From Deltaproteobacteria bacterium (GTDB lineage Bacteria > Desulfobacterota > GWC2-55-46 > JADFVP01): a stretch of 64,000 nucleotides of DNA. The stretch's first letter is position 1; each line of letters begins with the position of its first letter. A program made the translations under genes and the position numbers. Below the pieces are notes generated by a model. That model had not been told where the DNA came from, ran no database searches, and saw nothing but the letters and a program-made list of their open reading frames with translations. Shown piece by piece: positions 40,261 through 56,609 of the stretch. The DNA lies in NCBI GenBank assembly GCA_029262515.1, contig JAJCZH010000020.1:65457-129456 (forward strand), in the 5' to 3' direction.

Positions 40261-41683
40261 CTATAACTATCTTTCTTGTAATCTTTCTAACAACGGTATC
40301 TACTTCGCTCTTCCAGTCGCCTTTGAGTCCCAGAATGCTATAGACCCGAACAGGTCCCTCAATACCTTTTATCATAACCTCTTGCGGCTCGCCAACGACA
40401 AGGTTGCCGCTTACCGACTCGTAAAGCCCGGCGCTTATCATTACTTCATCCGGCCCTGCAATATCCGAGAGGCGCGAAGCGATATTAACTGCAGGCCCTA
40501 CCGCCGTATACTCCATCCTGACACTCGAGCCCATATTCCCTACAATCACATTTCCGGTTTCGAGCCCGACGCCTATACGAAACGGCAGAAGCCGGGCCTG
40601 CTCTCTCGAACCGTTCATCATATCGACCGCCTCTTTAATGGCAACAACCGTCTTTACTCCCTGCTCAAGATGGTTACCCATCTTAACCGGGGAGCCGAAG
40701 ACCCCCATTACAGCGTCTCCTATAAACTTGTCGATCGTTCCGCCAAACTCGGAGACCACTTCTGTAATGAGCGTGAAGTAATCGTTCAGCACCTCAACCG
40801 TCATCTCCGGCGTCATGCGCAGAGAGTGCGAGGTAAAATCCCTAATATCCGCGAAGAAGACCGTAATGTCGCGTTTTTCTCCGCCGAGCCGCACGCTATC
40901 CGGGTCGCGAAGTATCTCGTCTGCCACGTGCGTGCTGACATACCGATTGAAAGCGCCCTTCAACTGCTCTTTCTTCTGCAACTCTTTTGCCATCGTGTTA
41001 AATGAGCCTACGAGTTCGCCTATCTCATCGTGGCTCCTTTTCATTTCTATCCTGTAATCGAAATTGCCCATGGCGATCTCTTTCGTACCCTGAAAGAGCC
41101 TGAGGATCGGCCGCAAAAGGCGTGTTGACAGAGGTATGGAAAGGATCGAAACAAGAAGGATGGCGATAATGGCTATTATGATAACGCTTGTCGTGGCCCT
41201 GCGCACGGTCTGGGCGATAAAGTCTCTGGAGAAGGTTATGGCAGTATAACCTACGATGGTATCCTGAAAGAGGATCGGTGCGGCAAAGGTCAACACGCCT
41301 TCGTCCTCATGTATGAGCCACGGAGGAGGCCCCTCGGCCTCTAGTATCGCATCCCCCCTGCGGTACTCCTTGCCTACATCCTGAAGCCGCATCTGCCCCT
41401 CTATCTCCATGGAATCGTTAAGGACATAGGCGTCAGCAATCCCAGGATACTTCATTATGTTGTCGACCAGCATGTTGAGAGCCAGGCCGTCATTTTGAAG
41501 TATCGGTATCTTAGTGTCGTGGGCGAACTCGTCGGTAATGGTGCCTGCCATGGAGCGCATCTGGTACTCAAGCGAACCCCGCTGGTTAGCAATCATGACT
41601 ATCCCCATCACGGAGGTTGTCACGAAGAGCAATACCGAGAGCACAACGGCAAACTTCATCTTTATGCCGAACTTGATCTTCAT
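40244..41683 (-). CDS. membrane sensor adenylate/guanylate cyclase (periplasmic sensor-HAMP-class III cyclase)
   Basis: 479 aa with two TM helices flanking a ~150 aa periplasmic domain. A HAMP domain is followed by the cyclase signature FADIRDFT...KFIGDAVMGVFG. Confidence 0.85.
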   Translation of the reverse strand: MKIKFGIKMKFAVVLSVLLFVTTSVMGIVMIANQRGSLEYQMRSMAGTITDEFAHDTKIPILQNDGLALNMLVDNIMKYPGIADAYVLNDSMEIEGQMRLQDVGKEYRRGDAILEAEGPPPWLIHEDEGVLTFAAPILFQDTIVGYTAITFSRDFIAQTVRRATTSVIIIAIIAILLVSILSIPLSTRLLRPILRLFQGTKEIAMGNFDYRIEMKRSHDEIGELVGSFNTMAKELQKKEQLKGAFNRYVSTHVADEILRDPDSVRLGGEKRDITVFFADIRDFTSHSLRMTPEMTVEVLNDYFTLITEVVSEFGGTIDKFIGDAVMGVFGSPVKMGNHLEQGVKTVVAIKEAVDMMNGSREQARLLPFRIGVGLETGNVIVGNMGSSVRMEYTAVGPAVNIASRLSDIAGPDEVMISAGLYESVSGNLVVGEPQEVMIKGIEGPVRVYSILGLKGDWKSEVDTVVRKITRKIVIDGMAS

Positions 41684-41842: not shown

Positions 41843-42250
41843 TGCCGGAGGCTGTCGTAAGCCGGATCCTGTAACCCCGCCGAAGCGGAGCAGCAACCAT
41901 TCATCTAGGCACGCCGTTGCCGACGCGCTCAAGCGACCTACCCGTTCCGCCGCCTTTCACGAAGAGAGAACAAGGGCGGGCAACCCTTAAAACGGAACCT
42001 ATTCGGCCTTGCACCGGGAGGGGGTTACCAAGCCCTGCCGATCACCCGGCAGGCTGGTGGGCTCTTACCCCACCTTTTCACCCTTACCCGCATCACTGCT
42101 CGAAAGCAGCAGCGCGAGCGGTATCTTTTCTGTGGCCCTATCCCTGGGGTCGCCCCCGGTCGCCGTTAGCGACCTCCCTGCCCTGCGGTGTCCGGACGTT
42201 CCTCTGCGGACCGATAACGGCCCGAAGCGGCTGCCTGACAACCTCCAGCA
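41843..42250 (-). ncRNA. rnpB: RNase P RNA (bacterial type A), approximate ends
   Basis: The minus-strand sequence contains GAGGAACGUCCGGACACC (the P4 5' strand), GGGUAAGGGUGAAAAGGUGGGGUAAGAGCCCACCAG and ACAGGAUCCGGCUUAC. A P1 helix forms by GGAGGUUGUC/GACAGCCUCC pairing. A U-run follows the 3' end. Confidence 0.75.
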
Positions 42251-42401: not shown

Positions 42402-43034
42402 TCAGGCCCTGGTATCTATCGCCTCATTCGCCAAACTATCTGCCTCCGCATTGCGCTCTCTTCTAACGTGCGCTATCTCAAAAAAAATGAGTGAGCTGGA
42501 AAGCGCCATCACCCGCTCGTACAGCGGCCTCAGGTCCGGACTCTTTACCCTGTAGAGCCCCTTCACCTGCTTGACCACAAGCTCGGAATCGGCCATTACG
42601 CTGAGCCTCTTTATCCCGAAACGGTGTGCAGACTCCAGAGCAACAATCAACGCCGAGTACTCGGCCACGTTGTTGGTAACAGATCCGAGAAACTTCTTGA
42701 GCCTCTTAAACGGATTGCCATCAGGATCGAGTATCAGCACCCCGGCGCCAGCCGTGCCGGGATTACCGCGCGAAGCGCCATCGACGAAAGCGGTATACCG
42801 ACCGGAGGCATCTACCTTGTGGCTCTCGCAAACTTTCTCCGCCTCGGCAACGCCGATTGCGTTAGATTTAACAGGCAACTCACCGGCAGAAGCAGGTACA
42901 AGGCCGGCGAGGATATCTCTTGCTTTCTCTGGTGTTATACCTAAGTTGCTTATTGTCAAGGCAAGATCAAAGGTGCCGGAGAGTTCCAGCAAAAAGGCTC
43001 TGACAAGGTCGGTTCCTTCGGGGAGACGTGCCAT
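42402..43034 (-). CDS. ribonuclease HI-family protein with ~70 aa N-terminal extension
   Basis: RNase H fold motifs FVDGASRGNPG, NNVAEYSAL and the C-terminal ERNAEADSLAN. Confidence 0.8.
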   Translation of the reverse strand: MARLPEGTDLVRAFLLELSGTFDLALTISNLGITPEKARDILAGLVPASAGELPVKSNAIGVAEAEKVCESHKVDASGRYTAFVDGASRGNPGTAGAGVLILDPDGNPFKRLKKFLGSVTNNVAEYSALIVALESAHRFGIKRLSVMADSELVVKQVKGLYRVKSPDLRPLYERVMALSSSLIFFEIAHVRRERNAEADSLANEAIDTRA

Positions 43035-43038
43035 AAAG

Positions 43039-43761
43039 TTAAACCGCTGCGGGCTGATCCTCTACGTACAGGATTCTATGGCAGTGCGGGCACGAAATGA
43101 GTTCATCCTCCCCGCGGCTGAGCTGCACGTAGAGTTGCGGCGGAACATGTATATAACAACCCTGGCAGGCTTCGTCCTTAACAGGAACTACGGCCCGACC
43201 ACCCCGGCTAGACTTGATAGCCTCATACTTGTCAAGCAGACTCTGAGGAATATCGCGCACAAGCTCGTCCCTTTGCTTGCTCTTATCCTCAACGGCCTTC
43301 TCTCTACCGTCCTTACCGGCATCAAGCTCGGAAGTTAACCGCTCCAGCTCTTGCTCTTTCTCCTCTATCTCGGCCATCTTAGCATCAACTTCAGCCTGCT
43401 TTTCATCAAACTTGGCCTGTACTGTTGACAGCTCTTGTTCTATATTCTTTGAGGTCTTCGTTCCCTGGCTCTTTTCGCGTGTAAGCGCCTTCAGCTCACG
43501 GTCGTTCTTGACCTCGCCCATACGGTCTACGGCCTTCTTCACCCTTGCGTTAGTCTCTTCGAGATGAAGTTGCACACCGCTGCGCTGAGTGGTAAACTCA
43601 GCCAATTCAGCCTCCAGCCTTTCGACAATCCCTTGTGCGCTCTTGATTCCGACTTCGACACCATCTATGGCTTGCCGAACGGAAGATGCCTCACCCTCTA
43701 CAGCACCTATCTCAAGATCTATACGTTGAATCTGCTCAAGTCTTTTTATCGGGTACTGCAT
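43039..43761 (-). CDS. COG1579/DUF164 coiled-coil zinc-ribbon protein
   Basis: 240 aa with a long coiled coil and a C-terminal C4 ribbon (CQGC...CPHC). Confidence 0.75.
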   Translation of the reverse strand: MQYPIKRLEQIQRIDLEIGAVEGEASSVRQAIDGVEVGIKSAQGIVERLEAELAEFTTQRSGVQLHLEETNARVKKAVDRMGEVKNDRELKALTREKSQGTKTSKNIEQELSTVQAKFDEKQAEVDAKMAEIEEKEQELERLTSELDAGKDGREKAVEDKSKQRDELVRDIPQSLLDKYEAIKSSRGGRAVVPVKDEACQGCYIHVPPQLYVQLSRGEDELISCPHCHRILYVEDQPAAV

Positions 43762-43890: not shown

Positions 43891-43966
43891 TGGTGGGCCC
43901 ACCAGGACTCGAACCTGGGACCAACCGGTTATGAGCCGGTGGCTCTTCCAACTGAGCTATGGGCCC
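43891..43966 (-). tRNA. tRNA-Met (anticodon CAU; elongator vs Ile2-lysidine type not distinguishable by eye)
   Basis: Minus-strand GGGCCCAUAGCUCAGUUGGAAGAGCCACCGGCUCAUAACCGGUUGGUCCCAGGUUCGAGUCCUGGUGGGCCCACCA folds as a cloverleaf. It carries a CAU anticodon and an encoded CCA. Confidence 0.9.
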
Positions 43967-44172: not shown

Positions 44173-46794
44173 TTACTCTGAAGTGTCCAGTTTATCTATC
44201 TGTTTAAGCACAAACTCACGCTCCTGTTCAATACTCTCTATCTCGCCATCAAGCCTGAGTGCAAGAATCTTTTCGAGTATTGTGCCCACTTCAGGGCCCT
44301 CGGAAACTCCCATCGTTATCAGATCGCTTCCCCTCAAAAGGGAACTCTCGCTGCCAAGCCTGGTAATGTAATGCGAAATCGCTTCGCGCGTGGCCTCACC
44401 CTCGGATCGCGCCATCATATAAATAAGAGTCTCAACAGGAAAAGGCCTGCACAGATTATACAATGTGCTGCCGGTACCCACAGCGCCGTTTTCGATTCTA
44501 CCGAGCGCCCTGAGCGCAGCCCCCCTCGATCCGAGGACATTGAGTCTTCTGCGTCCGCTTACCTTAAGCTCTTCGGCCAGAGCCACCAGCTCACTCTCTG
44601 TAAGCGGACCGGTAAGAACAAGCAGAAAGACCAGCCACTCTTCGGCCTCTTCATCTCTGTAAAGAAGCCTGTACCAGACGAGGGTATCGCGCGCGCGCTC
44701 AAAGAGCGCCTCAACAGAGCCGTTCCACTCTATAGAAGGATGGATAAACTTAACAACCCCTAGTTCATAGAGCCGCTTGACAGTCCGTGTCGGCGACTCT
44801 TCGGCAAAAACATGTTTAAACTCATCGAAGAGCCTTATTGCGGACACATTACCTACAAGACCGCTCTTGACCGCGTTTCTGATCAGGTTCAGGGTGTGCC
44901 TGTCTATCTTAAAGCCGAACTTTTCACTGAAACGAATCGCTCTAACGGCCCGCGTCGGATCCTCTACAAAGCTCAGGTTATGCAACACCCTGATCCTGTG
45001 CTCCTTAAGATCCTTCTGTGCTCCAAAGAAATCGATAAGCCCTCCGAAACCGGACGGGTGGAGGGCAACGGCGAGCGTATTTATTATAAAGTCGCGCCTG
45101 TATAGATCGAGCTTGAGCGACGACTGCTCTATTGTCGGAAGCGAACCCGGTTTTTCATAATACTCGAGGCGTGCCGTTGCGACATCTATCTTAAAACCGT
45201 CGGGAAAGACCAGCACCGCAGTCTTGAACCGGGAGTGCGCCCTAACATGCAACCCCTTTTCAGACGCGAACTCACGGGCAAACTCTATCCCGTCTCCCCC
45301 TTCTACCACTATATCTATGTCGAGGTTTTCACGCCTTAAGAGCAGGTCCCTGACCACACCGCCGACAAGGTACAACTTCATACCCATTCGCTCGGCAACC
45401 GTGCCCGCCTCCTTCAATACTTCAACGAGCCATTCGGGAAGCTTCTCGCTCATAAGGCCCGTTACATGTCTCATCCTGGAAGAACCAGTCCCTGCCGGAG
45501 TTGCGCTCAACTCTTCCTGCAAAAGTTTCAGAAGGTCGGTACGGGTAATTACCCCGACAAGTTCATCCCCGCGCTCAACCGGCAACAGCCTCTGGCCATG
45601 CTTAACTACCTTATCTCTTATCTCATCAACTGAAGTGGAAACGTCTACTGTCTCGCACTCCGTCATCATATAATCACTTACGGCTGCGTTATCAAGCCCG
45701 TGATAGAGCGCCTTGTCTACCACCTGCCGCGTAATGACACCCGAGATATCACCACTGTCTACGACCGGCAGCGCATTTACGTTATAACGGCGCATTATAA
45801 CCAAAACCTCTTTAAGACCAGCAACCGGGGTAACCGTAATGGGTGGAAAACTCATTATCTCTTCGGCCCGTCTCACCGGCACCAACATCTCTTTCAAGAC
45901 AACGAGCAACCTCTCTCGCGCCTGTATAACGGTAACGCCTTTTAACGTCACCGAGGCCGCGCCCTTGTGCCCGCCACCGCCGAGCTCTCTCAGGACTGCG
46001 CCCACATCGACTCTGCTTTCCGAAGAGCGCGCAACAACATGTACCCTGTCTCCCGAATCGACCAGCATAAAGAGGTTTTTCACCCCTCCGACTTCGGTTA
46101 TCTTCTCGGCCAGCGTAGAAATTTCACCCCTGTACTCATCCAGCGAGCCCTCCACTATCGACACATCGACGTCTCCTACCGTATAGATCATGCGCGACTG
46201 CAACAGGTCGTTGAGCAGAGCGACCTCGGAAGGGCTCAGTTCATGCCTGAGCATTTCAGAGACTAAAGAAAGATCGGCGCCAAAGGGAAAAAGAAAGGCC
46301 GCGGCCTCGTAATCGGCCATAGTGGTTGAACGGTACGTGAGGTTACCGGTATCTTCGTAGATGCCGGCCATAAAGAGAGTCGCTTCGATGGAGGTAAGCT
46401 CAAATCCTCTTTCTTTGAGAAGAAGAGAGAGCACGGTCGCAGTAGAGCCGTAAGGCTTTATGACCTCGACAGAACCGCGTATGGCACCGGTTACCTCAGG
46501 ATGATGGTCGTAGATATGAATATCGAGCCCTTGCCGTCCGACTATTCCGGCAAACGGGCCTATACGCGAAGCGTGGCGTACGTCAACGAGAATAAGCCTC
46601 TCGACACTGTCCATATCAATATCAGAGGGCTTCTCCACAGCGCATGGTAGATCGAGGCCCTTAAGCGCCGTAGTTAAGGCGCGCTCTATTGAACCGGACC
46701 AGACAAGACGAGCCCCGGGATAGAGCCTTCTGGCAGCTATCATCGATGCAAGAGTATCGAAGTCGGCATTTATATGCGAGGTTATGACCTCCAT
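44173..46794 (-). CDS. DHH-DHHA1-CBS pair-polyA polymerase/CCA-adding nucleotidyltransferase fusion protein
   Basis: 873 aa. The N-terminus carries DHH motifs (HINADFD, DHH), followed by two CBS domains. Then comes a nucleotidyltransferase head GGVVRDLLLRRENLDIDIVV...RRDFTIN-like (RRDFIINTLA) with a C-terminal tRNA-NT body. Confidence 0.8.
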   Translation of the reverse strand: MEVITSHINADFDTLASMIAARRLYPGARLVWSGSIERALTTALKGLDLPCAVEKPSDIDMDSVERLILVDVRHASRIGPFAGIVGRQGLDIHIYDHHPEVTGAIRGSVEVIKPYGSTATVLSLLLKERGFELTSIEATLFMAGIYEDTGNLTYRSTTMADYEAAAFLFPFGADLSLVSEMLRHELSPSEVALLNDLLQSRMIYTVGDVDVSIVEGSLDEYRGEISTLAEKITEVGGVKNLFMLVDSGDRVHVVARSSESRVDVGAVLRELGGGGHKGAASVTLKGVTVIQARERLLVVLKEMLVPVRRAEEIMSFPPITVTPVAGLKEVLVIMRRYNVNALPVVDSGDISGVITRQVVDKALYHGLDNAAVSDYMMTECETVDVSTSVDEIRDKVVKHGQRLLPVERGDELVGVITRTDLLKLLQEELSATPAGTGSSRMRHVTGLMSEKLPEWLVEVLKEAGTVAERMGMKLYLVGGVVRDLLLRRENLDIDIVVEGGDGIEFAREFASEKGLHVRAHSRFKTAVLVFPDGFKIDVATARLEYYEKPGSLPTIEQSSLKLDLYRRDFIINTLAVALHPSGFGGLIDFFGAQKDLKEHRIRVLHNLSFVEDPTRAVRAIRFSEKFGFKIDRHTLNLIRNAVKSGLVGNVSAIRLFDEFKHVFAEESPTRTVKRLYELGVVKFIHPSIEWNGSVEALFERARDTLVWYRLLYRDEEAEEWLVFLLVLTGPLTESELVALAEELKVSGRRRLNVLGSRGAALRALGRIENGAVGTGSTLYNLCRPFPVETLIYMMARSEGEATREAISHYITRLGSESSLLRGSDLITMGVSEGPEVGTILEKILALRLDGEIESIEQEREFVLKQIDKLDTSE

Positions 46795-47022: not shown

Positions 47023-47904
47023 TTACTTCTTTTTGTCCTTCGACTCGTCCTCGTCCTCGTCCTCTTTCTCTACAGGCACAGGAGGCGCCGGCTGCGAATG
47101 GCACCTGAAGCAGTCCTCGAGCGGAAAAGAGACTGTGCCGTGACAGGTGCCGCAATACTGGCCGGCTATAATCTTCAACATATGCATATCCTTATTGCCT
47201 CCGGCCTTCTCTTTAAAGATGCTCGGATGGCAATTTGCACATGTAAGCTGCTCGGTATGCGCCTTGTGCGGAAACTTCACATCCGGCGGATGAGGCGTCA
47301 TCTTGACCGCCGGTATAATTATATCGGTATCTAGAACCTTCAGTTTCTCGCCCCCGGAACTCAGTTTTATGTCGCGCTTCCTCAGCGCTTTCACCCAGTT
47401 TACCCTGTTGCCAAAGTCGTCTTCCGGCAATGGCTCCCTCAGTTCTTCCATATCACTATTACCGGTATCATCCGCATCGAGACCCGAAGAGTGGCACCTT
47501 GTGCAACTATCTTCGTCATCGGCAGCAAACGCAACCCGGTCATTGTGACACGTAGCGCAGAACTTGCCTTCTTCCATAGCTGAGTGAGTAACACCGGCCT
47601 TGCCGGCTTTGAACGAGTAACCTGAATCGGAATGGCAGGCGCTACAGGTATATTTAACCCTGTGGGCAAGGTGTGAAAAGATTACCGGCTTTACTCCCTT
47701 AGACTCGTCGATACCCTTACCCATCAAGACGTCACCGAACGCATCGGGATTCCTCACCCTTCCGTGACCGCTCCATGCGGCAGCCTTACGGGCCGTATAC
47801 CCATCATCTGTCTTCTTTACCTTTTCTGCGGCATCTGAGTAAAGCGGGGTTAAAAGAAAGACTGCAAGAAACGTAAAAACCAGTGTATGCCTAATAAACC
47901 TCAC
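47023..47904 (-). CDS. hexaheme c-type cytochrome, secreted
   Basis: 293 aa with a signal peptide and 6 CxxCH motifs (CSACH, CATCH, CTRCH, CANCH, CGTCH, CFRCH). The C-terminal tail reads PAPPVPVEKEDEDEDESKDKKK. Confidence 0.85.
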   Translation of the reverse strand: MRFIRHTLVFTFLAVFLLTPLYSDAAEKVKKTDDGYTARKAAAWSGHGRVRNPDAFGDVLMGKGIDESKGVKPVIFSHLAHRVKYTCSACHSDSGYSFKAGKAGVTHSAMEEGKFCATCHNDRVAFAADDEDSCTRCHSSGLDADDTGNSDMEELREPLPEDDFGNRVNWVKALRKRDIKLSSGGEKLKVLDTDIIIPAVKMTPHPPDVKFPHKAHTEQLTCANCHPSIFKEKAGGNKDMHMLKIIAGQYCGTCHGTVSFPLEDCFRCHSQPAPPVPVEKEDEDEDESKDKKK

Positions 47905-47958: not shown

Positions 47959-48387
47959 TCAATAGCCCTTGTGGCACGAAGCGCAGAGTTTAAAGTACGA
48001 AACCCGAAGCATATTAGGGTGCCGGGTTTTATTATGTTGCTCGTGGCATGTATTACAGACCAGGAGCCCGCCTTCCGAGACCGGCAACGAGACCGGAAGC
48101 ATGCGTCCCGGCGCTTTTCCCATCGGGTGCCTGACGACAGGGTGATTACCTACATTGCCCGCATGGCACTTTGTGCAGGTTGTAACGGGGTCTGCAAGCA
48201 GTTCTGGCGACTGAGAGACATGGCATATCACGCAACTCTTCTTGTCTCTAAAGTCATGCGGACTTTTCCGCGTCCACTCCTCTTCATCTGCCTGCGCACT
48301 AACACTGCCCGTAAGTATGCAAAGAGCTAGCGAAGATAACAGAACTGCAAGTACCAGTTGTAGTGACTTGCTCAAATTGTTCTCCAT
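47959..48387 (-). CDS. tetraheme c-type cytochrome (c3/c7-like)
   Basis: 142 aa with a signal peptide and 4 CxxCH motifs. Confidence 0.85.
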   Translation of the reverse strand: MENNLSKSLQLVLAVLLSSLALCILTGSVSAQADEEEWTRKSPHDFRDKKSCVICHVSQSPELLADPVTTCTKCHAGNVGNHPVVRHPMGKAPGRMLPVSLPVSEGGLLVCNTCHEQHNKTRHPNMLRVSYFKLCASCHKGY

Positions 48388-48527: not shown

Positions 48528-50765
48528 TCAATTGGAGCAATCGGCAACGATGTTACAGTCGTAATTGACCTGTGGCGTGCTGATAGTAACCGGAGTAGTA
48601 GAGAAGTCCTTATTACAAACCTCGTCCGTTAACGGAGCCACGGCCCTGAAGCCGATACTACCGCCTGACAGCGTGCTCGGGCGCGTATACGACTCAACGC
48701 ATGCTCCGTTCATCATACGGTACCCAAGCGGATCTCCGGAGCTGCCGGCAGCGCCATTACTGCCGTGAACTCCCTTTATCACATTATCCACAGCGTCGTA
48801 ACCGCCGCCATGACAGGTTAAGCAGAGGTTGCTGAACTTATTGGAATTATTACCCGTGTCTGCGCCAATAGCATAAAACGGAGAGGCGACACCAAGACCG
48901 TCCGGCGGATGGGAGACCCTTGAGTATGAGGCGTATATGCCTACGTAACCCTGGTCTCCGTAAACATCCCTGCGGTGGCAATTATAACAGAAGTTCTGCA
49001 GTGAACCAATACCGGTTGTGTTATTCTTCAAGATCCATTTATTATCAGAACCGTGAGGCCCGACCGGATCACTCGAGACGCTTGAGCCGTGACAATCCGA
49101 GCACGTCATCATAGAGTCATGCTTGACATTATAGTATCCGGCTCTTGCTCCTCCACCGGTAAACTCCACATACCTGAAGGTATTTGAAAGGCCGAGGCCG
49201 TTTATCGGCCAGTTGATATTAGCGCTTACCGGCGGTTTATTCTTACCGCTGGCAAAGACAGGGTGGACCGACATATTGTTGACATTAAAGTCTTTGGTCA
49301 TGTCCGACTGCCTGAGAGTAGAACCGTTGGCATTGCCAGACGGGGCATTCGGCGGCAGGAAACCGTATGCGTAATAAGAGTGGCACTTTAAGCAAAGGTA
49401 CCCTTCGAGGTTGTCAAAGCCGGCTGTGGTCGTGGTAAAATCGACCTCTTGATACGTATTGGCTGCGGTACCCGCCAAAGGCCACGGCGACGGCTTTACT
49501 CCCCAACTTCCTAAAATATTGGGTCCGATTATATTACCGTCGATATCTCCAACCTTATGGTTACCGGGCATTGTGCCGTGAGAGTTGTGGCAGTCCGCGC
49601 ACTCTGCATGCCTGTTACCGCCGAGGTTTACCGCGCTCTCTCGGACGGGATCTAAAGATGCCGCCCGCGATGGCACATGAGCGCCGACAGTAGCTTTGAC
49701 ATTATGCTTCGATATGCGGTTGAAGACCGGTTCCATATCTTTAACGGCTACGTTACCGTTATGACAATTGAGACATGTCCACTCCTCTGCATCAACGCTC
49801 TGCGTAACCGGGTTCGTACCCTTTAGAAGAGGCGTACCAGAAGAGCCGGTGTGCGAACGGTGGCATGCTACACAACTCTGCAAGGCCGGCGTATCGTCAC
49901 TAAAATCAGGAGTAACGCCTAAATCCTCATGGAACGGATTCTCACCGAGCCCGTTCCACGTAGCGGTTGAGGTAGAGTGAACCGACGGCATGGTGCTCCA
50001 GTACCTCAAGTCATGGCATGTATTGCAGATTGCCCCGTTATCCAGCGGTTCAACCATCATTTTGGGATAGGCCGTACCATGCGGGTCGTGGCAGCTCCGG
50101 CACTGCACCTGACCGTTGCTATCGAGTTTAACGTTCAACGGTAATGTTGCCGAATCTCTTATTTCGGTATTTGAAGGGTACGACAGAGAATAATCGAATG
50201 AAATCGGATGATCGTCACTAAGGTCTGTGCCTATAAAGGCTGTCGAGACGGATGTCAACATGCCAGAGGTAACGCCAGGCCCCGTTACGGCAAGAATACC
50301 GCCTGGACTCGCCTTGCCGGGAAGGTTTAGCATGGAGCCGAGCGCTATCGTACCGTCGTGGCAAGAGAGGCAGAGCTTTGAAGAGCCGGTGGGCTGCCCC
50401 AGAACTGCCGAGACCGTCTGCGAGGCGTAAATATTGTAGGTGGCGGACGAAGCATCTCTGTTCCACATAGGGTTTGCCGGATTGGAGTTGTGTGGAGTAT
50501 GGCAGAAGACGCATATCTCGCTATTTTGAGTAGTCTTTACATCCGCCTTGGAGAGACTTCCGAAGTTGTGCTTAGTGCCGGCAACAGAGGCGTGCGCAAC
50601 CGGCGCCGTAACCGTCAGCATCAACAGAGCAACTGCAACGACTGACACGGTGCGTAACAGTACAGCCGTATAACCGCTACCGCTGCTAAACATTTCTGTT
50701 GCCATACTCAAGCCTCTTTCATTCTTTTCCATATCCATAACATTCCGTCTCTTTAATTCGCGCAA
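48528..50765 (-). CDS. large undecaheme c-type cytochrome with paired CxxCHxxH motifs, probably cell-surface
   Basis: 745 aa with a signal peptide and 11 CxxCH motifs. Several are of the CxxCHxxH form (CVFCHTPH, CRSCHDPH, CVACHRSH, CADCHNSH). The composition is S/T/G/N-rich. Confidence 0.85.
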   Translation of the reverse strand: MRELKRRNVMDMEKNERGLSMATEMFSSGSGYTAVLLRTVSVVAVALLMLTVTAPVAHASVAGTKHNFGSLSKADVKTTQNSEICVFCHTPHNSNPANPMWNRDASSATYNIYASQTVSAVLGQPTGSSKLCLSCHDGTIALGSMLNLPGKASPGGILAVTGPGVTSGMLTSVSTAFIGTDLSDDHPISFDYSLSYPSNTEIRDSATLPLNVKLDSNGQVQCRSCHDPHGTAYPKMMVEPLDNGAICNTCHDLRYWSTMPSVHSTSTATWNGLGENPFHEDLGVTPDFSDDTPALQSCVACHRSHTGSSGTPLLKGTNPVTQSVDAEEWTCLNCHNGNVAVKDMEPVFNRISKHNVKATVGAHVPSRAASLDPVRESAVNLGGNRHAECADCHNSHGTMPGNHKVGDIDGNIIGPNILGSWGVKPSPWPLAGTAANTYQEVDFTTTTAGFDNLEGYLCLKCHSYYAYGFLPPNAPSGNANGSTLRQSDMTKDFNVNNMSVHPVFASGKNKPPVSANINWPINGLGLSNTFRYVEFTGGGARAGYYNVKHDSMMTCSDCHGSSVSSDPVGPHGSDNKWILKNNTTGIGSLQNFCYNCHRRDVYGDQGYVGIYASYSRVSHPPDGLGVASPFYAIGADTGNNSNKFSNLCLTCHGGGYDAVDNVIKGVHGSNGAAGSSGDPLGYRMMNGACVESYTRPSTLSGGSIGFRAVAPLTDEVCNKDFSTTPVTISTPQVNYDCNIVADCSN

Positions 50766-50786: not shown

Positions 50787-51893
50787 TTACGATAACTTAC
50801 CACCTTCACCGAGGTGTTCGAATATCTGAATTCTTCTGTTATAAGAGTCCGCTACATAGATATAACCGCCGGAATCTATAAAGAGCCCGCTCGGCATCCA
50901 GAAAGCCCCTCTTGCGTCCCCGATACTGCCGAAGTTGAGCATAAAGTTTCCGTCGCGGTCAAATATCTGAACCGTATCGAACAGGGCGTCTGCAACATAT
51001 ATATTGCCGTCCATGTCTACGGCTATGCCCTTGGGCCTGCCGAAATCCCCGGAGCCGTCACCCTGCGTGCCGAAGCTTGATATGAACCTGCCACCGGAAT
51101 CGAATATCTGAACCTTGTAGTTCATCGTATCTACGACATAGACATCAGACCTGCGGTCTAGGAATATATCTACCGGAAAACTGAATTTACCTTTCGTATC
51201 ACCGCGCCCGCCGAAGGTCTTGACCCCACTGCCGTCAAGGTTTGACATACGGACATTATGAGAGCCGGTATCAACAACATAGAGCCGTTTGGCGGACTTG
51301 TTTATCGCAAGACCCGTAGGCCTTTTTCCGACATTGAACCCACTCACGTACTTGCCGTTAAAATTAAAGACATAGACCTTTGCCGCAATAGAATCGGTTA
51401 CGTAGATATTGTCCTGCCCGTCCACGGCCACGCCTATCAAAGAAATAAAAGCAAAATCTCCTGCGCGCTCTATACGGCTGTACTTCTTCTCTTTCATATC
51501 ATAAATGTGGATAAGCTTGAGAGCGGTGTCGGCAACGAGAATCCTGCCTCTTGAATCGACCGTAAGCCCGTAGGGCTTTACCATGTTATTGACCTTGGCA
51601 CCAAAGAGAACATCGGCAAGCTTCTTGAAAAAACCGCTGCCAGCGCCGATATCCTTAGGCGTTGCAATCACCTTGGAGTAACTTATACGTGGAGGCGCCG
51701 GTGGAGAGGGCCAGATAAGGGCCTTTTGCGAACTTAAATCTTCGGTATCGTCCCCCTTGGAGGCAGTGCAGGACGGAAGCGTCACCCCGAGCGTAACAAG
51801 CATAAGAACGGTAAGGATAGAAAGTCCAAAACGGGCTCTCAGGGCAACAACGCCGGAGGTTAGCGAGAAAGAGGTAGCGGCTATCTTTTCCAT
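50787..51893 (-). CDS. NHL-repeat six-bladed beta-propeller lipoprotein
   Basis: A lipobox (LPSCTA) and repeated NHL signatures (GIAVDxxGNIYVxD). The start is set at the ATG at 51893; the track ORF starts 32 aa upstream. Confidence 0.8.
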   Translation of the reverse strand: MEKIAATSFSLTSGVVALRARFGLSILTVLMLVTLGVTLPSCTASKGDDTEDLSSQKALIWPSPPAPPRISYSKVIATPKDIGAGSGFFKKLADVLFGAKVNNMVKPYGLTVDSRGRILVADTALKLIHIYDMKEKKYSRIERAGDFAFISLIGVAVDGQDNIYVTDSIAAKVYVFNFNGKYVSGFNVGKRPTGLAINKSAKRLYVVDTGSHNVRMSNLDGSGVKTFGGRGDTKGKFSFPVDIFLDRRSDVYVVDTMNYKVQIFDSGGRFISSFGTQGDGSGDFGRPKGIAVDMDGNIYVADALFDTVQIFDRDGNFMLNFGSIGDARGAFWMPSGLFIDSGGYIYVADSYNRRIQIFEHLGEGGKLS

Positions 51894-52035
51894 ACTCCTA
51901 TCAGTGCTCCCTTTACTATTTTGCTTACTCTTTGGCATATTTTTCAGTACACTCCCTGACATATCAGCACTTACCGTTATTGAGACCAAACCCGTGCCAA
52001 CGACTTGTCAACACAAGACCTGCCGTCTTCTCGAT

Positions 52036-52641
52036 TCACTTCCTGTGGCAGTACTGACAGATCTCAAGTCCTTCGGAACGGAGCCTGCGAACCGAATCCG
52101 CGCCCCAGTCATTCCTACCCTTCAACACTCCCTTTTCGTGACTATTGTGACATGTAACGCATGTGACTTTACCTGTCTCAGGGTCGAGCGGCAAGATAGT
52201 ATTAACCTCTTTCAAGGCAAGCCTCATGTTCAAGGAAATAATTTTCGTCGGCTCTACAAGATGGTCGGTCGCATAGATAAAACTCATAGCGCCGCCTATC
52301 GTATCTTTAGTGGCAGGGTGATTCTTTATCGTATGGCACTTGTAGCAGAGCTCTTTGTACTCTCCACCTACGCGAAGCTCAATATCACCCTGCCTGTCCA
52401 TACTCAAGTCCGGCACACCCTTATGGCAGACAAGACAGACACCCCAAAGAACCTCACCTTCATCATTTACCTGCTCATGAGGGTTTACTACTGTCTTTAA
52501 CGCCAAACTCCTTGCATACGGCGCAACATCGGATCTGAACTTGGGTGCAGGCTCCTCTGCGCTCATACTGCTGCCGACACCCAGCATCAGAAGCACAACG
52601 GCCAGAACAGGTATAGTAGATCTCTTTATTAATTTGCGCAT
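52036..52641 (-). CDS. tetraheme c-type cytochrome
   Basis: 201 aa with a signal peptide and 4 CxxCH motifs. The last motif, CQYCHRK, sits at the extreme C-terminus. Confidence 0.85.
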   Translation of the reverse strand: MRKLIKRSTIPVLAVVLLMLGVGSSMSAEEPAPKFRSDVAPYARSLALKTVVNPHEQVNDEGEVLWGVCLVCHKGVPDLSMDRQGDIELRVGGEYKELCYKCHTIKNHPATKDTIGGAMSFIYATDHLVEPTKIISLNMRLALKEVNTILPLDPETGKVTCVTCHNSHEKGVLKGRNDWGADSVRRLRSEGLEICQYCHRK

Positions 52642-52813: not shown

Positions 52814-53971
52814 TCAAGGCGCAAACGCATATACTTTTCCGTCTTTAGAACTGACAAAGACTTTACCGTCGGAGACAGCCGGGCTCGACTGCACTCCCCC
52901 CCCTGTCTTGTACTTCCATAAAACATCTCCGAAAGTAGAATCGACAGCGTAGAAGTAACCGTCGTCGCAACCGACATATATAATACTGCTCGAAGTTAGC
53001 ACCGGAGTAGAGTTTATAGCTGCCGGAAGTTTGAACTCGGAGATATCTTCACCTGTACTCTTGTTAAGCACAACTATCTTGCCGCTCCTGAGCGCCTGAT
53101 ACAGTCGCCCCCTGCTGACTACGGGAGAGGAGTACGGAAGATCGTTCCCGAACGATTTTCTCCAGAGAACCTTACCGTTACTCACATCCATCGCAAAGAG
53201 TTTACGCTCGTTATTCGCAACATATAACATTTTACCGTTTACCGCAGGAGTGGCATAAACGGAAGAGGTCAGCTTTTTGTTCCAGTTACGCGCACCGCTC
53301 TTGATGCTAGTTGAATAGAGAGTACCGCTTTTACCAGCAACTATTATCGCGTCGTCAGCAAGGACAGGAGAGGCGTACATGCCTCCGTACTTAATCTTGT
53401 CACGTATCTTACGGCGCCACTTTCTCTTACCTGTCTTGGCATCTATGGCATAATACTGACCGTCGCTCGCAGCTATATAGACCATGCCGTCTTCCACAAA
53501 CGGAGAGGTAAATACCTCGACCTTCGTATCGTAACGCCATACCTCCTTACCGGTATCCGTGTTGAGCGCGTAGACCTTGCCGTCCTTCGAACCGAAGAAG
53601 ATGGAACCCTTGACGGCGGCAGGAGTGGAGAGTATCTCGCCATCGACCTCAAAACTCCAGAGCTTGGAGCCGGTTTCGGCATCGAGGGCATAAAGCTTCT
53701 TGTCGTACGACCCGATAAAAACCTTACCGTCGTAAACTATAGGAGAGGAGTAGATCGGTCCGCCGGTTGTAAAAGACCATTTTAGCTCCAGAGGAGGGCT
53801 CGGAGCATTTCGCGCATAAGAGGTCCGACCGCTGTCCTTCATAAACATCGGCCAGTCTGCACCGACCGTACCGGAAGAAGCGAAAATAAAAGAGACCGCC
53901 ACTGCAAGCATTACGATAATAGTAGGCATCATGCGCCGGGACCTGCCAAATAAACCTTTAATGGTTACCAT
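52814..53971 (-). CDS. PQQ-like (BamB-type) beta-propeller repeat protein
   Basis: 385 aa with a signal peptide and repeated G-K-V/L-Y-A-L/V-D-xx-T-G-K-xx-W blades. Confidence 0.8.
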   Translation of the reverse strand: MVTIKGLFGRSRRMMPTIIVMLAVAVSFIFASSGTVGADWPMFMKDSGRTSYARNAPSPPLELKWSFTTGGPIYSSPIVYDGKVFIGSYDKKLYALDAETGSKLWSFEVDGEILSTPAAVKGSIFFGSKDGKVYALNTDTGKEVWRYDTKVEVFTSPFVEDGMVYIAASDGQYYAIDAKTGKRKWRRKIRDKIKYGGMYASPVLADDAIIVAGKSGTLYSTSIKSGARNWNKKLTSSVYATPAVNGKMLYVANNERKLFAMDVSNGKVLWRKSFGNDLPYSSPVVSRGRLYQALRSGKIVVLNKSTGEDISEFKLPAAINSTPVLTSSSIIYVGCDDGYFYAVDSTFGDVLWKYKTGGGVQSSPAVSDGKVFVSSKDGKVYAFAP

Positions 53972-54615
53972 TAGACCTTAAACCTCGAAATCTTTTCCTG
54001 CGCCATCTTTCTCTCAAACGCAATAGTGTCGAGCATACTCTTCAAGTCGGCTCGTGAAGGAGCCTCACCTTTTTGAGTCAACCTCAACTCGTTAAAACTT
54101 CTCTCCATCTCCAGTACCGACCACCCGACAACTTTAAAACTCTCCTCCAGGCAGCCTGCCATAGAGTTAAAAGAGTCCGGCAGGGCAGGCTGAGCGTCGC
54201 CCATATCCACACGCTCGATAAAATAACCCCTGCCGAACTTCGAAACCGATTCCTTCAACCCAGCCATCGGAGTCTCTACGCGCTTTAATAGAACACGGCC
54301 TATCAAAGCGGCAGCAATAACTATAACGGGTACGACTGTCACGGTCAATTTCCATAATATCGGCATCGCAATTTCCGAGGTCGACCGTACCCTTATATGA
54401 ATTTTATATAACTCTGCAGTGAGCTCCCTGTCAATTAAAAAATAGACGAGAATCATATTGGCAACAATACCGATGAAGACAGCAAGAGCGAAGCCAACGA
54501 CGAAGCGAGACTGCATCTTTCTGTTTATAAAGAAGTGGCGCCTTCTTAACCTTGGAAAAGTTGGTTCTACCATAGAATCAAAACCTTCCGTAAACTCTTC
54601 CTCACCCTCAGGCAA
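53971..54615 (-). CDS. two-TM HAMP-domain membrane protein without output domain
   Basis: 214 aa: TM1, a short loop, TM2, then a HAMP-like segment (LLKRVETPMAGLKESVSKFGRGYF...) and a ~50 aa tail. Its stop overlaps the start of the PQQ gene (TAATG). Confidence 0.6.
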   Translation of the reverse strand: MPEGEEEFTEGFDSMVEPTFPRLRRRHFFINRKMQSRFVVGFALAVFIGIVANMILVYFLIDRELTAELYKIHIRVRSTSEIAMPILWKLTVTVVPVIVIAAALIGRVLLKRVETPMAGLKESVSKFGRGYFIERVDMGDAQPALPDSFNSMAGCLEESFKVVGWSVLEMERSFNELRLTQKGEAPSRADLKSMLDTIAFERKMAQEKISRFKV

Positions 54616-54706
54616 GTAAATAATATTATACCGTTATTAAAAGCCAATTAATACCGAATTAAATAGCAACTAACAAAAACAGGGCCCGAAGACGAAGCCC
54701 GACCCT

Positions 54707-55522
54707 TTACTTGACGTGGCAACCGAGACAAAGAGCGCTACCTTCATTGCTCATGCTCAACTCCTGACCGATATGCGAGTACGGATTGTGGCAAGTCCCG
54801 CACCCGACAACTCCGGCAAACAGCTTAATCCCCGACGGCAGTTCGTTCACCCCCCTCAAGGCGCCCATATACTTACGCTTCATCTCAAAGTAGTTCATGC
54901 CTATAGGATGGCTCAGCCCTATTGACTGAATGTTATGAATAATACTGGACGTAGAGGTAATTGCCCTGTTACCAGAGAGCGAATCGACGCCGAACTCACC
55001 GTCGTGGCAGGCCAGGCACTTTATCGATATATCGTCAAGAACCGTACCGAAATCGCCTACATTCAACCCGGTGGATAACGTAGAGCCGATGTGCGCCGAC
55101 CCGATAGAAACCTTGTGCAGCTCGGCATCTATGTCACTATGGCACAATATACAGAAACCCTCGCCGATAGCGTTCGACCTCAGGCGGTAAGCTCCGAAAC
55201 CCTGCTGATGAGCCGGATGGCACGTAACACAGGTGACCTGCCCTCTCCAGTCGAGCGGAAAAGTGCTCGGCACAATAGCGTTTACGGGCACCATATCTAC
55301 GGGATGCGAAAACTCCCTGGCACTCTCGTGACAGTCGAGGCAAAGCTCACTCTCGTCCGCGTACAATGTACCGGGTCCCTCACCCGGCCCCGGTACGGCT
55401 ATATGACAATCGAGACATAATCCATCGAAGTTATGATAATTAGTCCACTGGGAAAAGACGTACCCTGCATAAACAGCAAATCCGATAAATAGCGTTACTA
55501 TAATAATCCTGACCTTTACCAC
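54707..55522 (-). CDS. heptaheme c-type cytochrome with N-terminal membrane anchor
   Basis: 271 aa with an N-terminal TM or signal anchor and 7 CxxCH motifs. Confidence 0.85.
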   Translation of the reverse strand: MVKVRIIIVTLFIGFAVYAGYVFSQWTNYHNFDGLCLDCHIAVPGPGEGPGTLYADESELCLDCHESAREFSHPVDMVPVNAIVPSTFPLDWRGQVTCVTCHPAHQQGFGAYRLRSNAIGEGFCILCHSDIDAELHKVSIGSAHIGSTLSTGLNVGDFGTVLDDISIKCLACHDGEFGVDSLSGNRAITSTSSIIHNIQSIGLSHPIGMNYFEMKRKYMGALRGVNELPSGIKLFAGVVGCGTCHNPYSHIGQELSMSNEGSALCLGCHVK

Positions 55523-55529
55523 AGACGCC

Positions 55530-56138
55530 CTACTCTTTCAGAGTGACACTCGAGCCGACTCTCTTCAAGTTCTCTATAGCCGCCCCCAGGCCCGCCAACC
55601 GCCTATCAACCTCCTGTGCGCTCTCAGTACCCGGCTTTGTATCGAGAAGTTCGGCAACCAACGCCTCCTTAGACTCGATATCGGCCAAAGCATCGCTTGT
55701 ACTTCGAACTGTATGGTTAACAGAGCGAACCATGGTATTTATCTCCCCCGCAATAGAGACGAACTGATCACCGCCCCGAAGATAGGTATCATGGGTAAGG
55801 TCTCCTGCGCCGATCTCGTCAAAAGCTCTTTTAAGCCGAACAGCGGGTCCCGCCATCTTATGAGAGAAAAAGAGCGCAATTACCGCTATCGCAACCGTCA
55901 CTACAGCAAGAATAAAGACCGAATAGAACGAAGCGAACATCAAAGAGAAGATATTTACCTTCAAGGAGTAGATGGTATAGATAGCGGAGCGGTAGGAGCC
56001 ACCGAGGTTCTTGGCTGTTGCAAAGTAGATAAAGAGCGTAATGCTAAGCATCCCGAGTATGGTTAGCATACAGAGTTTTATGCCGAACTTTAGCTTAAAA
56101 CCTCTTTCAACCAATACGTCTTCGCTCATAAACGGCAT
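55530..56138 (-). CDS. two-TM HAMP-domain membrane protein without output domain
   Basis: 202 aa: TM1, a 26 aa loop, TM2, a HAMP segment (HKMAGPAVRLKRAFDEIGAGDLTHDTYL...INTMVRSV) and a ~70 aa helical tail. It is the first gene of the cytochrome cluster. Confidence 0.65.
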   Translation of the reverse strand: MPFMSEDVLVERGFKLKFGIKLCMLTILGMLSITLFIYFATAKNLGGSYRSAIYTIYSLKVNIFSLMFASFYSVFILAVVTVAIAVIALFFSHKMAGPAVRLKRAFDEIGAGDLTHDTYLRGGDQFVSIAGEINTMVRSVNHTVRSTSDALADIESKEALVAELLDTKPGTESAQEVDRRLAGLGAAIENLKRVGSSVTLKE

Positions 56139-56279: not shown

Positions 56280-56342
56280 AGTATACTGATTATATCGGTA
56301 CCGGAAGGACTTCCTTAACCACTTTATCGACCATTTTTTATC

Positions 56343-56372
56343 TTGACAAACGGAAGGCGCGCTTACTATAGT
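56343..56372 (+). promoter_or_regulatory. sigma70-like promoter for tRNA-Cys
   Basis: TTGACA, an 18-nt spacer, then TATAGT, ~100 nt upstream of tRNA-Cys. Confidence 0.4.
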
Positions 56373-56472: not shown

Positions 56473-56548
56473 GGCGGCGTACCCAAGTGGTTAAGGGAGC
56501 AGTCTGCAAAACTGCCATTCAGCGGTTCGAATCCGCTCGCCGCCTCCA
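56473..56548 (+). tRNA. tRNA-Cys (anticodon GCA)
   Basis: GGCGGCGUACCCAAGUGGUUAAGGGAGCAGUCUGCAAAACUGCCAUUCAGCGGUUCGAAUCCGCUCGCCGCCUCCA, 76 nt, forms a cloverleaf with anticodon loop CUGCAAA and an encoded CCA. Confidence 0.9.
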
Positions 56549-56558
56549 AAATAAGAGA

Positions 56559-56609
56559 CCCCCTGAGAACTTCCGGCATTAGAAGTTCTCAGGGGGCCTT
56601 TCTCTTTAT
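56559..56609. terminator. bidirectional intrinsic terminator (tRNA-Cys and malic enzyme gene)
   Basis: A 15-bp perfect stem CCCCCTGAGAACTTC/GAAGTTCTCAGGGGG with T-rich tracts on both sides. Confidence 0.75.

Follow-up and report, generated by a model that had tools for sequence, protein, structure and literature searches.

HAMP domains almost always act as internal relays that connect the input and output modules of one and the same protein. How HAMP proteins that lack an output of their own signal had been unclear until 2026, when a preprint described one kinase-binding case: in the Cache_heme-HAMP (CHH) receptor of Pseudomonas azotoformans, the output-less HAMP domain binds a Ser/Thr kinase encoded in the same operon (bioRxiv 10.64898/2026.05.25.727664). 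CHH stands alone as an experimental precedent for an output-less HAMP that signals in trans. Here we describe a pair of genes, mini-HAMP A and mini-HAMP B (A and B in what follows), located on the minus strand of a 64,000-nucleotide stretch of deltaproteobacterial DNA (assembly GCA_029262515.1, contig JAJCZH010000020.1, positions 65,457 to 129,456), the whole of which is referred to as the window. The two genes flank a gene for a heptahaem c-type cytochrome, cyt7, at the head of a nine-gene block (Table 1). We consider it possible, with a probability of about 0.4, that A and B constitute a trans-acting, heterodimeric HAMP adaptor coupled to this cytochrome.

Like CHH and Af1503 from Archaeoglobus, A and B are transmembrane (TM) proteins that end in a HAMP domain without an enzymatic or methyl-accepting chemotaxis protein (MCP) output. 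CHH has a sizeable periplasmic sensor domain, whereas A and B possess only a loop of 22-29 aa. A sizeable periplasmic sensor domain is also present in Af1503. Each of these two receptors is a single homodimeric protein, whereas A and B are two diverged paralogs; moreover the haem protein in the window is a separate polypeptide, and an extra helical hairpin follows the HAMP domain. A tie to haem c is common to CHH and A/B (bioRxiv 10.64898/2026.05.25.727664), but no Cache match is found in A or B, and no kinase is encoded among the nine operon genes or in the flanks. HtrII and the intramembrane-sensing kinases of the BceS/LiaS type resemble A and B in having two TM helices, a very short external loop and a HAMP domain directly after, and they are thought to sense via a membrane partner and not a ligand-binding domain. 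These proteins carry an MCP domain or a HisKA/HATPase kinase, whereas A and B carry neither, and their partner is a rhodopsin or an ABC transporter, in contrast to the c-type cytochrome proposed for A and B. The haem-c chemoreceptors GSU0582 and GSU0935 of Geobacter sulfurreducens likewise link a periplasmic c-type haem to a TM-HAMP relay, although in these proteins the haem domain, HAMP and MCP output are fused, whereas in the window the haem resides on a protein of its own and an MCP output is lacking. By type of protein, A and B are nearest to the rare output-less HAMP receptors (Af1503 and CHH), and by topology to HtrII and the intramembrane-sensing kinases, minus the sensor or output parts that define each of these.

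The gene order of the block is A, cyt7, B, PQQ propeller, tetrahaem cytochrome, NHL propeller, undecahaem cytochrome, small tetrahaem cytochrome and hexahaem c7-type cytochrome, and its products contain 32 haem motifs in sum. A sequence-only reading of this DNA had described A and B as stand-alone two-TM HAMP proteins embedded in a cytochrome operon, which is borne out, and the multihaem-cytochrome operon is conserved. The same reading had each of them preceding a cytochrome; this is correct for A, the stop of which lies 7 nt ahead of the cyt7 gene, but not for B, the stop of which overlaps the start of the PQQ/BamB-like propeller gene, with the tetrahaem cytochrome after it. In operon content the block is similar to the uet cluster of Tenderiales (bioRxiv 10.1101/2022.05.06.490989) and, as summarised in PMC13194489, to the osc/OmcS companion operon of Geobacter: undecahaem, tetrahaem and c7-type cytochromes and NHL propellers in a tightly kept order are common to them. 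This likeness concerns gene content, and no porin or peptidyl-prolyl isomerase gene was seen in the nine-gene block. The word HAMP does not occur in the text of the uet preprint (bioRxiv 10.1101/2022.05.06.490989), nor in PMC13194489, which summarises osc, and literature searches that rested on such texts yielded no HAMP component for either cluster.

Both open reading frames (ORFs) are present on the minus strand as had been listed, with corrected starts. The start of A is most likely the ATG at 56129 (M4 of the listed ORF), with an AAGGA box 9-10 nt ahead, and that of B most likely the ATG at 54573 (M15 of the listed ORF), with a GGAAGG box 10 nt ahead; the starts were moved inward because the positions of the ribosome-binding sites (RBS) and the N-termini of homologs agree. 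The proteins on record have 199 and 200 aa. Full-length homologs of A are 196-206 aa long (47-78% identity at E down to 1e-91; E 1e-43 to 1e-119 across the family) and those of B 193-215 aa (40-72% identity, E 1e-28 to 1e-123). Since these homologs are of the same size and full length, A and B are conserved genes and not chance ORFs or fragments.

Family alignments, hydropathy and AlphaFold (AF2) single-chain models agree in both proteins with the plan that had been read from the sequence, namely a short N-terminus, TM1, loop, TM2, HAMP and helical tail, and place the N-terminus in the cytoplasm. In A (202-aa numbering) these segments are TM1 ~19-41, loop ~42-63, TM2 ~64-91, HAMP 92-143 and tail 144-202, and in B (200-aa numbering) TM1 24-46, loop 47-75, TM2 76-96, HAMP 97-146 and tail 147-200, the loops comprising 22 aa in A and 29 aa in B. 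In the AF2 models TM2 runs unbroken into the first HAMP helix (AS1), the connector has 13-16 residues, and the second HAMP helix (AS2) extends into a longer helix that is followed by a turn and a return helix, forming the tail hairpin. The model of A has a predicted local distance difference test (pLDDT) value of 76, with helices at 6-45, 49-110, 127-166 and 174-196; the value for B is 68. A Foldseek comparison of the A model with the PDB gave nothing at E<=0.001, the top match being the HAMP-DHp region of CpxA, and the likeness of the A tail to AcrA-type hairpins is trivial.

An AS1-connector-AS2 sequence directly follows the last TM helix in both A and B, and the canonical HAMP residues are found in the two families: the AS1 Pro, the G-D-L/F connector and (F/I)N-x-M in AS2. 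A contains SHKMAGP (Pro 98) at the TM2/AS1 junction, G112-D-L-T in the connector and EINTM, and B contains ETP (Pro 102), G116 in the connector and SFNSM. In hidden Markov model (HMM) searches the HAMP assignment stands at family level, where 16 of 20 A-type proteins (best 1.5e-7) and 11 of 17 B-type proteins (best 1.1e-4) have a HAMP match at E<=0.1, but does not stand on the single sequences: A reaches 22 bits (E 2e-4) against Pfam HAMP (PF00672), under the gathering cut-off of 25 bits, and B alone has no match to Pfam HAMP, approaching only the HAMP regions of AdeS/CztS-type histidine kinases (E ~0.02). Distant members of the family reach 33-34 bits against Pfam HAMP, over the cut-off. The call is secure at the level of the family and weaker for A and B individually. 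Profile searches of the PDB recovered the TM2-HAMP region of Tsr (E 1.7e-5), HtrII (2f95_B, E 0.009) and PcaY and, weakly, the Af1503 HAMP (E ~0.04); the match of the A profile to Tsr starts at TM2 and reaches the first methylation helix.

The absence of an output domain, as had been claimed, is upheld by Pfam and NCBIfam, in which no kinase, MCP signalling, GGDEF or cyclase domain is detected in A or B at E<=1. Neither HisKA plus HATPase_c nor Guanylate_cyc nor GGDEF follows the HAMP in these searches, and there is no Pfam MCPsignal match at E<=1, the tail consisting of 54-59 aa. The MCP models of NCBIfam cover only TM2 and HAMP of A and B, at 16-33 bits against cut-offs of ~900.

A and B had also been termed paralogous, a relationship that is not seen by pairwise BLASTP (16% identity, E 0.17, not significant) but is evident when the A family is aligned to the B family by hhalign (probability 97.6%, E 3.3e-12, 181 columns, end to end). 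They are old, distant paralogs, visible as such only at profile level. In both, selection is strongest on the periplasmic side, in the loop and TM2. The top-residue frequency is 0.78 and 0.81 in the loop and TM2 of A, where the aromatic and hydroxyl residues Y49, Y57, F64, F68, S70 and Y72 are invariant, and 0.88 in the loop of B, where 14 of 29 positions are invariant; it is 0.50-0.75 in the HAMP domains and lowest, 0.36-0.57, in the tails. One invariant residue of the B loop is a His. A role for it as a cytochrome-specific haem ligand was considered and rejected: the same His motif occurs in mini-HAMP relatives without cytochrome neighbours.

A scan of one genome per species encountered full-length relatives of 180-230 aa (60-95 bits to the A profile) well beyond the lineage that carries the cytochromes, namely in Omnitrophota, Planctomycetia, Spirochaetes (Leptospira, Turneriella), Fibrobacteres, Bdellovibrionota, one Desulfobacterium and one Acidobacterium. 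A joint A+B profile run against 1.84 billion cluster representatives matched 77,504 of them at E<=1e-3, a set whose weakest matches will include ordinary HAMP proteins; 2,663 matches remain at E<=1e-10, and at E<=1e-30 there are 41. Among the best 150 representatives, 135 are proteins of 170-245 aa with a single full-length match and 8 are long poly-HAMP proteins; A and B themselves give a single full-length match of the ~200-aa type. The family signature comprises a basic N-terminal motif, [RK][RK]xYFIxKxFQxRF, two TM helices separated by a ~25-aa loop, SHK(I/M)AGP at the TM2/AS1 junction, a GDLT connector and the hairpin tail, which very often terminates in F-K-V/I/L. No Pfam or NCBIfam model spans the whole of a mini-HAMP protein, and nothing on the ~200-aa family itself was found in the literature or among curated families. 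In their source databases the homologs are named only "methyl-accepting chemotaxis protein" (JGI, NCBI) or "hypothetical protein", the former of which, judged by the defining feature of that family, is wrong.

The signature is divided between A and B. All three motifs (N-terminal basic, SHKxAGP and C-terminal FKV) are present in 45 of 133 small representatives of the wider family. In the A family the N-terminal basic motif is found in 0/20 members, SHKxAGP in 20/20 and the C-terminal FKV in 3/20, and in the B family the respective counts are 15/17, 0/17 and 11/17, B itself having the basic N-terminus RLRRRHFFINRKMQSRF and a C-terminal RFKV. A retains SHKxAGP only and B retains only the N- and C-terminal motifs. 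Such complementary loss is what one expects of a homodimer that was duplicated and became an obligate heterodimer.

A-type genes are present in ~29 species-level metagenome-assembled genomes (MAGs) labelled Deltaproteobacteria or Thermodesulfobacteriota, all from uncultured organisms. The scan used one genome per species, with re-called ORFs and HMMs, and provided 33 close loci. The order A-cyt7-B is observed in 27 of these, five of the other six end at a contig edge within ~1.3 kb after A, and the sixth, L023, has only an A-like gene; some 25 uncultured species share the operon, and the full nine-gene order is found in 20 loci as well as in the window. The gap between A and cyt7 varies from a 7-nt spacer to a 4-nt overlap. 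Locus L003 carries the A-cyt7-B trio alone, without propellers or other cytochromes and with a DHH-CBS-PolyA-polymerase gene directly after, so the trio is a unit able to exist without the remaining operon genes. In one subclade (L026, 5488-6934; L028; L030, 11452-12898) an insertion of two TPR genes, one for a lipoprotein of 180 aa and one for a ~280-310-aa membrane protein, parts cyt7 from B. A jackhmmer match to TPR_PDZ beside B in these three loci was discarded as drift through TPR repeats, the genes concerned being the two inserted TPR genes.

Mirror-tree analysis was performed with pairwise distance matrices for nine proteins from 21 taxa, the partial correlation being that which remains after the mean of the other seven proteins is regressed out. 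The A-B pair has the highest correlation of all (r 0.96; partial r 0.71, 5000 permutations, p 2e-4), and A-cyt7 and B-cyt7 each have a partial r of 0.37 (p ~0.002-0.003). Between A or B and the adjacent PQQ propeller the partial correlation is negative. As a group, A, B and cyt7 co-vary among themselves more than with the other operon proteins. The other pairs to stand out by partial Mantel analysis are PQQ-NHL (0.54) and tetrahaem-hexahaem c7-type (0.54). These values are suggestive of three sub-modules within the operon, one of which consists of A, B and cyt7, and there are hints that PQQ-NHL and tetrahaem-hexahaem are two further sub-complexes. It is on the basis of the complementary motifs, the strict co-occurrence of the two genes and the A-B co-variation that we infer an A/B heterodimer. 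Physical contact of the pair with cyt7 and any role in signalling are likewise inferences.

More distant members of the family have other neighbours. A multihaem cytochrome adjoins the mini-HAMP gene in 0 of 51 distant loci; co-occurrence of mini-HAMP genes with multihaem cytochromes is seen in the close loci but not in these. The mini-HAMP gene abuts, and often overlaps, a conserved neighbour in 42 of the 51. In 18 loci the neighbour encodes a secreted TPR/PDZ protein, in 10 a SurA_N-like anchored protein (accompanied by a 188-aa secreted protein, seen in 9 loci), in 6 a lytic transglycosylase, in 4 a 7TMR-HD receptor and in 4 an uncharacterised 230-aa protein; one representative each of the TPR/PDZ, SurA_N-like, lytic transglycosylase and 7TMR-HD types was identified as an envelope protein by Pfam. 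Because the distant loci have these other neighbours and no multihaem cytochromes, the cytochrome link is specific to one lineage, and most distant loci show a link to a co-encoded envelope protein. We considered the C-terminal FKV as a PDZ ligand for the neighbouring TPR/PDZ proteins and rejected this on topology, as the tail is cytoplasmic and those PDZ proteins have signal peptides. In an Omnitrophota MAG (L040, 3343-6403) a tandem duplication comprises genes for a SurA_N-like anchored protein and mini-HAMP proteins (214, 181, 185, 199 and 181 aa), which shows a mini-HAMP adaptor and its periplasmic partner duplicating together.

If A and B form the proposed adaptor, they would pair as a heterodimer in the inner membrane, a dimer being proposed because HAMP is a dimeric four-helix bundle, and this heterodimer would be the partner of the cyt7 protein encoded between them. 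The short conserved loops and TM2 would touch cyt7, in the manner of HtrII and rhodopsin or BceS and BceAB, and the HAMP domain would carry a conformational change across the membrane. On the cytoplasmic face, the HAMP surface, the hairpin, the N-terminal basic motif of B and the C-terminal FKV may act in trans on a putative partner, and information could flow either outside-in or inside-out. Action through protein-protein contacts, as the sequence-only reading had it, is the only obvious mode for an output-less HAMP, has a precedent in CHH and fits the co-variation of A, B and cyt7. A more general proposal, which we regard as quite unlikely, is that mini-HAMPs are a widespread and unrecognised class of trans-acting TM adaptors that connect a periplasmic partner encoded by a neighbouring gene to cytoplasmic targets by way of the HAMP surface and the conserved terminal motifs. 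The partner would be a heptahaem cytochrome in this lineage and a chaperone-like, PDZ or lytic-transglycosylase protein in others, and A/B, duplicated and subfunctionalised, would be a kind of "HtrII for a cytochrome" that informs the cytoplasm directly of the redox state of an extracellular electron transfer chain or of the electron flux through it.

Several observations weigh against a cytochrome-coupled adaptor. Shared rate constraints can mimic a mirror-tree signal between A and B, which are both small membrane proteins. The AF2 models, being monomers, cannot display a HAMP bundle. All nine products of the operon are exported or membrane proteins, and it provides no conserved candidate for a cytoplasmic partner. 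Conservation is lowest in the tail, where a docking surface would be expected to show more of it, and the loop motifs are shared with relatives that have no cytochrome neighbour and hence are not cytochrome-specific. Several cyt7 orthologs have signal-peptidase-like sites, so that the anchor may be cleaved, and in one ortholog an insert of ~70 aa separates the hydrophobic segment from haem 1. Finally, in locus L023 an A-type gene (42-647), whose product shares 41% identity with A, has no cytochrome gene beside it and is followed by radical-SAM-like genes on the opposite strand; because of this gene, A-type proteins are not strictly tied to the cytochrome trio.

Ranking next after the adaptor, and in our view rather unlikely, is a structural or assembly role in which A and B, without any part in signalling, would anchor or scaffold cyt7, and perhaps the propellers, at the inner membrane or help them to mature, with a HAMP that merely dimerises. 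Such a role would be in keeping with the weak conservation of the tail relative to the membrane and loop regions, with an operon that has no gene for a cytoplasmic partner and with the co-variation of A, B and cyt7, and the relatives located beside SurA_N chaperone-like, PDZ/TPR and lytic transglycosylase genes fit an envelope-assembly helper. A plain dimerisation helix would nevertheless have no need of the AS1 Pro, the GDL/F connector and the FNxM in AS2, all of which are kept across phyla; the distant members exceed the Pfam HAMP cut-off, and conserved motifs in the cytoplasmic N-terminal region and at the extreme C-terminus suggest an interaction in the cytoplasm. Were A and B only anchors, the value of the present analysis would be smaller, amounting to a corrected annotation and a defined three-gene module. 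It is improbable that the two proteins are inside-out regulators analogous to LapD, in which a cytoplasmic cue, sensed by the basic N-terminal motif, the hairpin or the C-terminal FKV, would pass through HAMP and TM2 to the loops and thereby influence the docking or activity of the cytochrome. Analogy is the sole basis of this proposal, no nucleotide- or second-messenger-binding motif is detected in A or B by Pfam or NCBIfam, and A is without both terminal motifs, although these cytoplasmic motifs are conserved at both termini across the family, the loops of A and B are too short to bind a ligand alone, and the gene adjoining a mini-HAMP usually encodes a periplasmic or envelope protein.

Still less probable is a role as membrane subunits of a new quinol:cytochrome oxidoreductase, similar to NrfH or CymA but with extra subunits, in which the cyt7 anchor and the two TM helices each of A and B would make up a quinol site close to haem 1. 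The weak likeness of the cyt7 N-terminus to NrfH (TIGR03153, E 0.0055), the position of haem 1 some 12 residues beyond the hydrophobic segment and the invariant Tyr, Phe and Ser residues of the A loop and TM2 could all be read in this way. A role for HAMP in redox enzymes is not known, however, and the loop and TM motifs are also found in relatives without cytochromes; conserved TM histidines that could bind haem b are lacking, and cleavage of the cyt7 anchor is possible. That A and B are left over from a disrupted MCP or sensor gene, or are mis-annotated chemoreceptors, is scarcely credible, even though several homologs are named as MCPs by JGI and NCBI and the Tsr alignment of the A profile extends from TM2 to the first methylation helix. 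No MCPsignal match is obtained at E<=1, the ~200-aa length recurs in dozens of species and across thousands of clusters, conservation extends to the C-terminal motif, and the next conserved gene directly follows or overlaps both A and B. The specific idea of a frameshifted MCP, which the sequence-only reading had itself raised as fatal to its interpretation, is refuted by the conserved full-length homologs, all of which are ~200 aa long.

The mini-HAMPs constitute a large family that has no name as yet and runs to thousands of clusters at 50% identity; without a sensor or output domain and mislabelled as chemoreceptors, it extends over Thermodesulfobacteriota, Omnitrophota, Planctomycetota, Spirochaetota, Bdellovibrionota and Fibrobacterota. 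The paired and apparently subfunctionalised version described here, firmly tied to a heptahaem cytochrome within a conserved operon of 32 haems, is an unusual arrangement. Should the pair sense or control cyt7, it would provide a direct link from an electron-transfer chain to cytoplasmic regulation in uncultured bacteria of sediment and groundwater.

Of two more specific proposals concerning signalling, one did not survive and the other has no specific support. The HAMP adenylate cyclase that had been offered as a possible partner is genuine, but genes for a DHH-CBS-PolyA-polymerase, a CT398-like zinc-ribbon protein and RNase H, along with a tRNA and RNase P RNA, stand between it and the operon, and it is rejected as a partner since all 33 related loci lack a homolog within 10 kb of the cluster. 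For a relay of redox state or membrane potential there is no specific indication; the loop motifs, including the His of B, also occur in relatives from other phyla that lack cytochrome neighbours.

The cyt7 protein matches Paired_CXXCH_1, Cytochrome_C7 and c3_2 in Pfam. Its N-terminal hydrophobic signal or anchor is followed by a conserved SQWxSYHDFxGxCLDCH (alignment of 28 orthologs), and haem 1 would be near the membrane if the hydrophobic segment is an anchor. The PQQ propeller is syntenic in 23 related loci, and no protein of the operon is better conserved than the undecahaem cytochrome (mean pairwise identity 0.63). The true start of the NHL propeller may be further downstream than the listed one. 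The malic-enzyme gene upstream ends in a strong terminator, which makes A the first gene of its unit, and Rfam detects no regulatory RNA upstream of the operon, just a tRNA. The candidate promoters and the terminator-like hairpin listed in Table 1 are consensus matches, the counts of which are at chance level; A-cyt7 and B-to-p293 might be separate or attenuated transcripts.

Table 1. Features of the window in and around the mini-HAMP/cytochrome operon, by position.
Feature	Position	Strand	Details
HAMP adenylate cyclase	40244-41683		Pfam HAMP 51 bits; Guanylate_cyc 80 bits
RNase P class A RNA, bacterial	41843-42246	-	291 bits
RNase H gene	42402-43034	-
CT398-like zinc-ribbon/coiled-coil gene	43039-43761	-
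tRNA	43894-43966	-
DHH-DHHA1-CBS-PolyA_pol gene (CCA-adding/poly(A) polymerase-like)	44173-46794	-	873 aa
Hexahaem c7-type cytochrome	47023..47904	-	293 aa, 6 CXXCH; Cytochrome_C7 2e-24; syntenic; last gene of block
Small tetrahaem cytochrome	47959..48387	-	142 aa; syntenic
Undecahaem cytochrome	48528..50765	-	745 aa, 11 CXXCH
NHL-repeat beta-propeller, probably lipoprotein	50787..51989	-	listed ORF 400 aa; NHL 1.9e-27; syntenic
Tetrahaem cytochrome	52036..52641	-	201 aa, 4 CXXCH; Cytochrome_C7, Paired_CXXCH_1; syntenic
PQQ-repeat/BamB-like beta-propeller, secreted	52814..53971	-	385 aa; Beta-prop_ACSF4 1e-64, PQQ_2 2e-56
Mini-HAMP B	53971..54573	-	200 aa; listed ORF to 54615 (214 aa); from ORF, homologs, RBS
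Promoter-like TTGGCT-16-TATTAT	54620-54647	-	cyt7-B spacer, ahead of B
Terminator-like hairpin and T-run	54682-54700	-	cyt7-B spacer, directly after cyt7 stop
cyt7, heptahaem c-type cytochrome	54707..55522	-	271 aa, 7 CXXCH; encoded between A and B
Mini-HAMP A	55530..56129	-	199 aa; listed ORF to 56138 (202 aa); from ORF, homologs, RBS
Candidate sigma-70-like promoter TTGTCA-17-TAAAGT	56321..56349	-	~180 nt upstream of A
tRNA	56473-56545	+	in 520-bp gap from malic-enzyme terminator to operon start
Terminator of malic-enzyme gene	56556-56599		19-bp stem

The surroundings of the operon vary among related genomes. In 15 related loci (including L001, L003, L004, L007, L008, L010, L012, L015 and L017-L022) hemE, hemH and hemY are located divergently upstream of the cytochrome operon on the opposite strand, and it may be that haem-synthesis genes beside a 32-haem operon are a functional placement; an ACT-malic enzyme gene takes their place in L006 and in the window. 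A dCache_3-HAMP-GAF-GGDEF gene (~718 aa) is found beyond the hem genes in eight loci (among them L004, L010, L012, L017, L018, L019 and L021), 4-7 kb upstream and on the opposite strand, and some of these loci also carry a HAMP histidine kinase and a sigma-54 response regulator. In that subclade the encoded protein may regulate the cluster; the window has neither the hem genes nor this gene at the corresponding position. A further arrangement recurs in Omnitrophota and Planctomycetia (L043, L053, L054, L060, L062, L074 and others), where genes for a CT398-like protein (~245 aa), RNase H (~144 aa), a TPR/PDZ protein (~320 aa) and a mini-HAMP occur in that order. The order in the window is the CT398-like gene, RNase H, RNase P RNA, the HAMP-cyclase and a TPR gene, and there may be an old linkage of the CT398/RNase H pair to a TPR gene and a gene for a HAMP membrane protein. 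The DHH-DHHA1-CBS-PolyA_pol gene always follows the cytochrome block (window, L001, L003 and L004).

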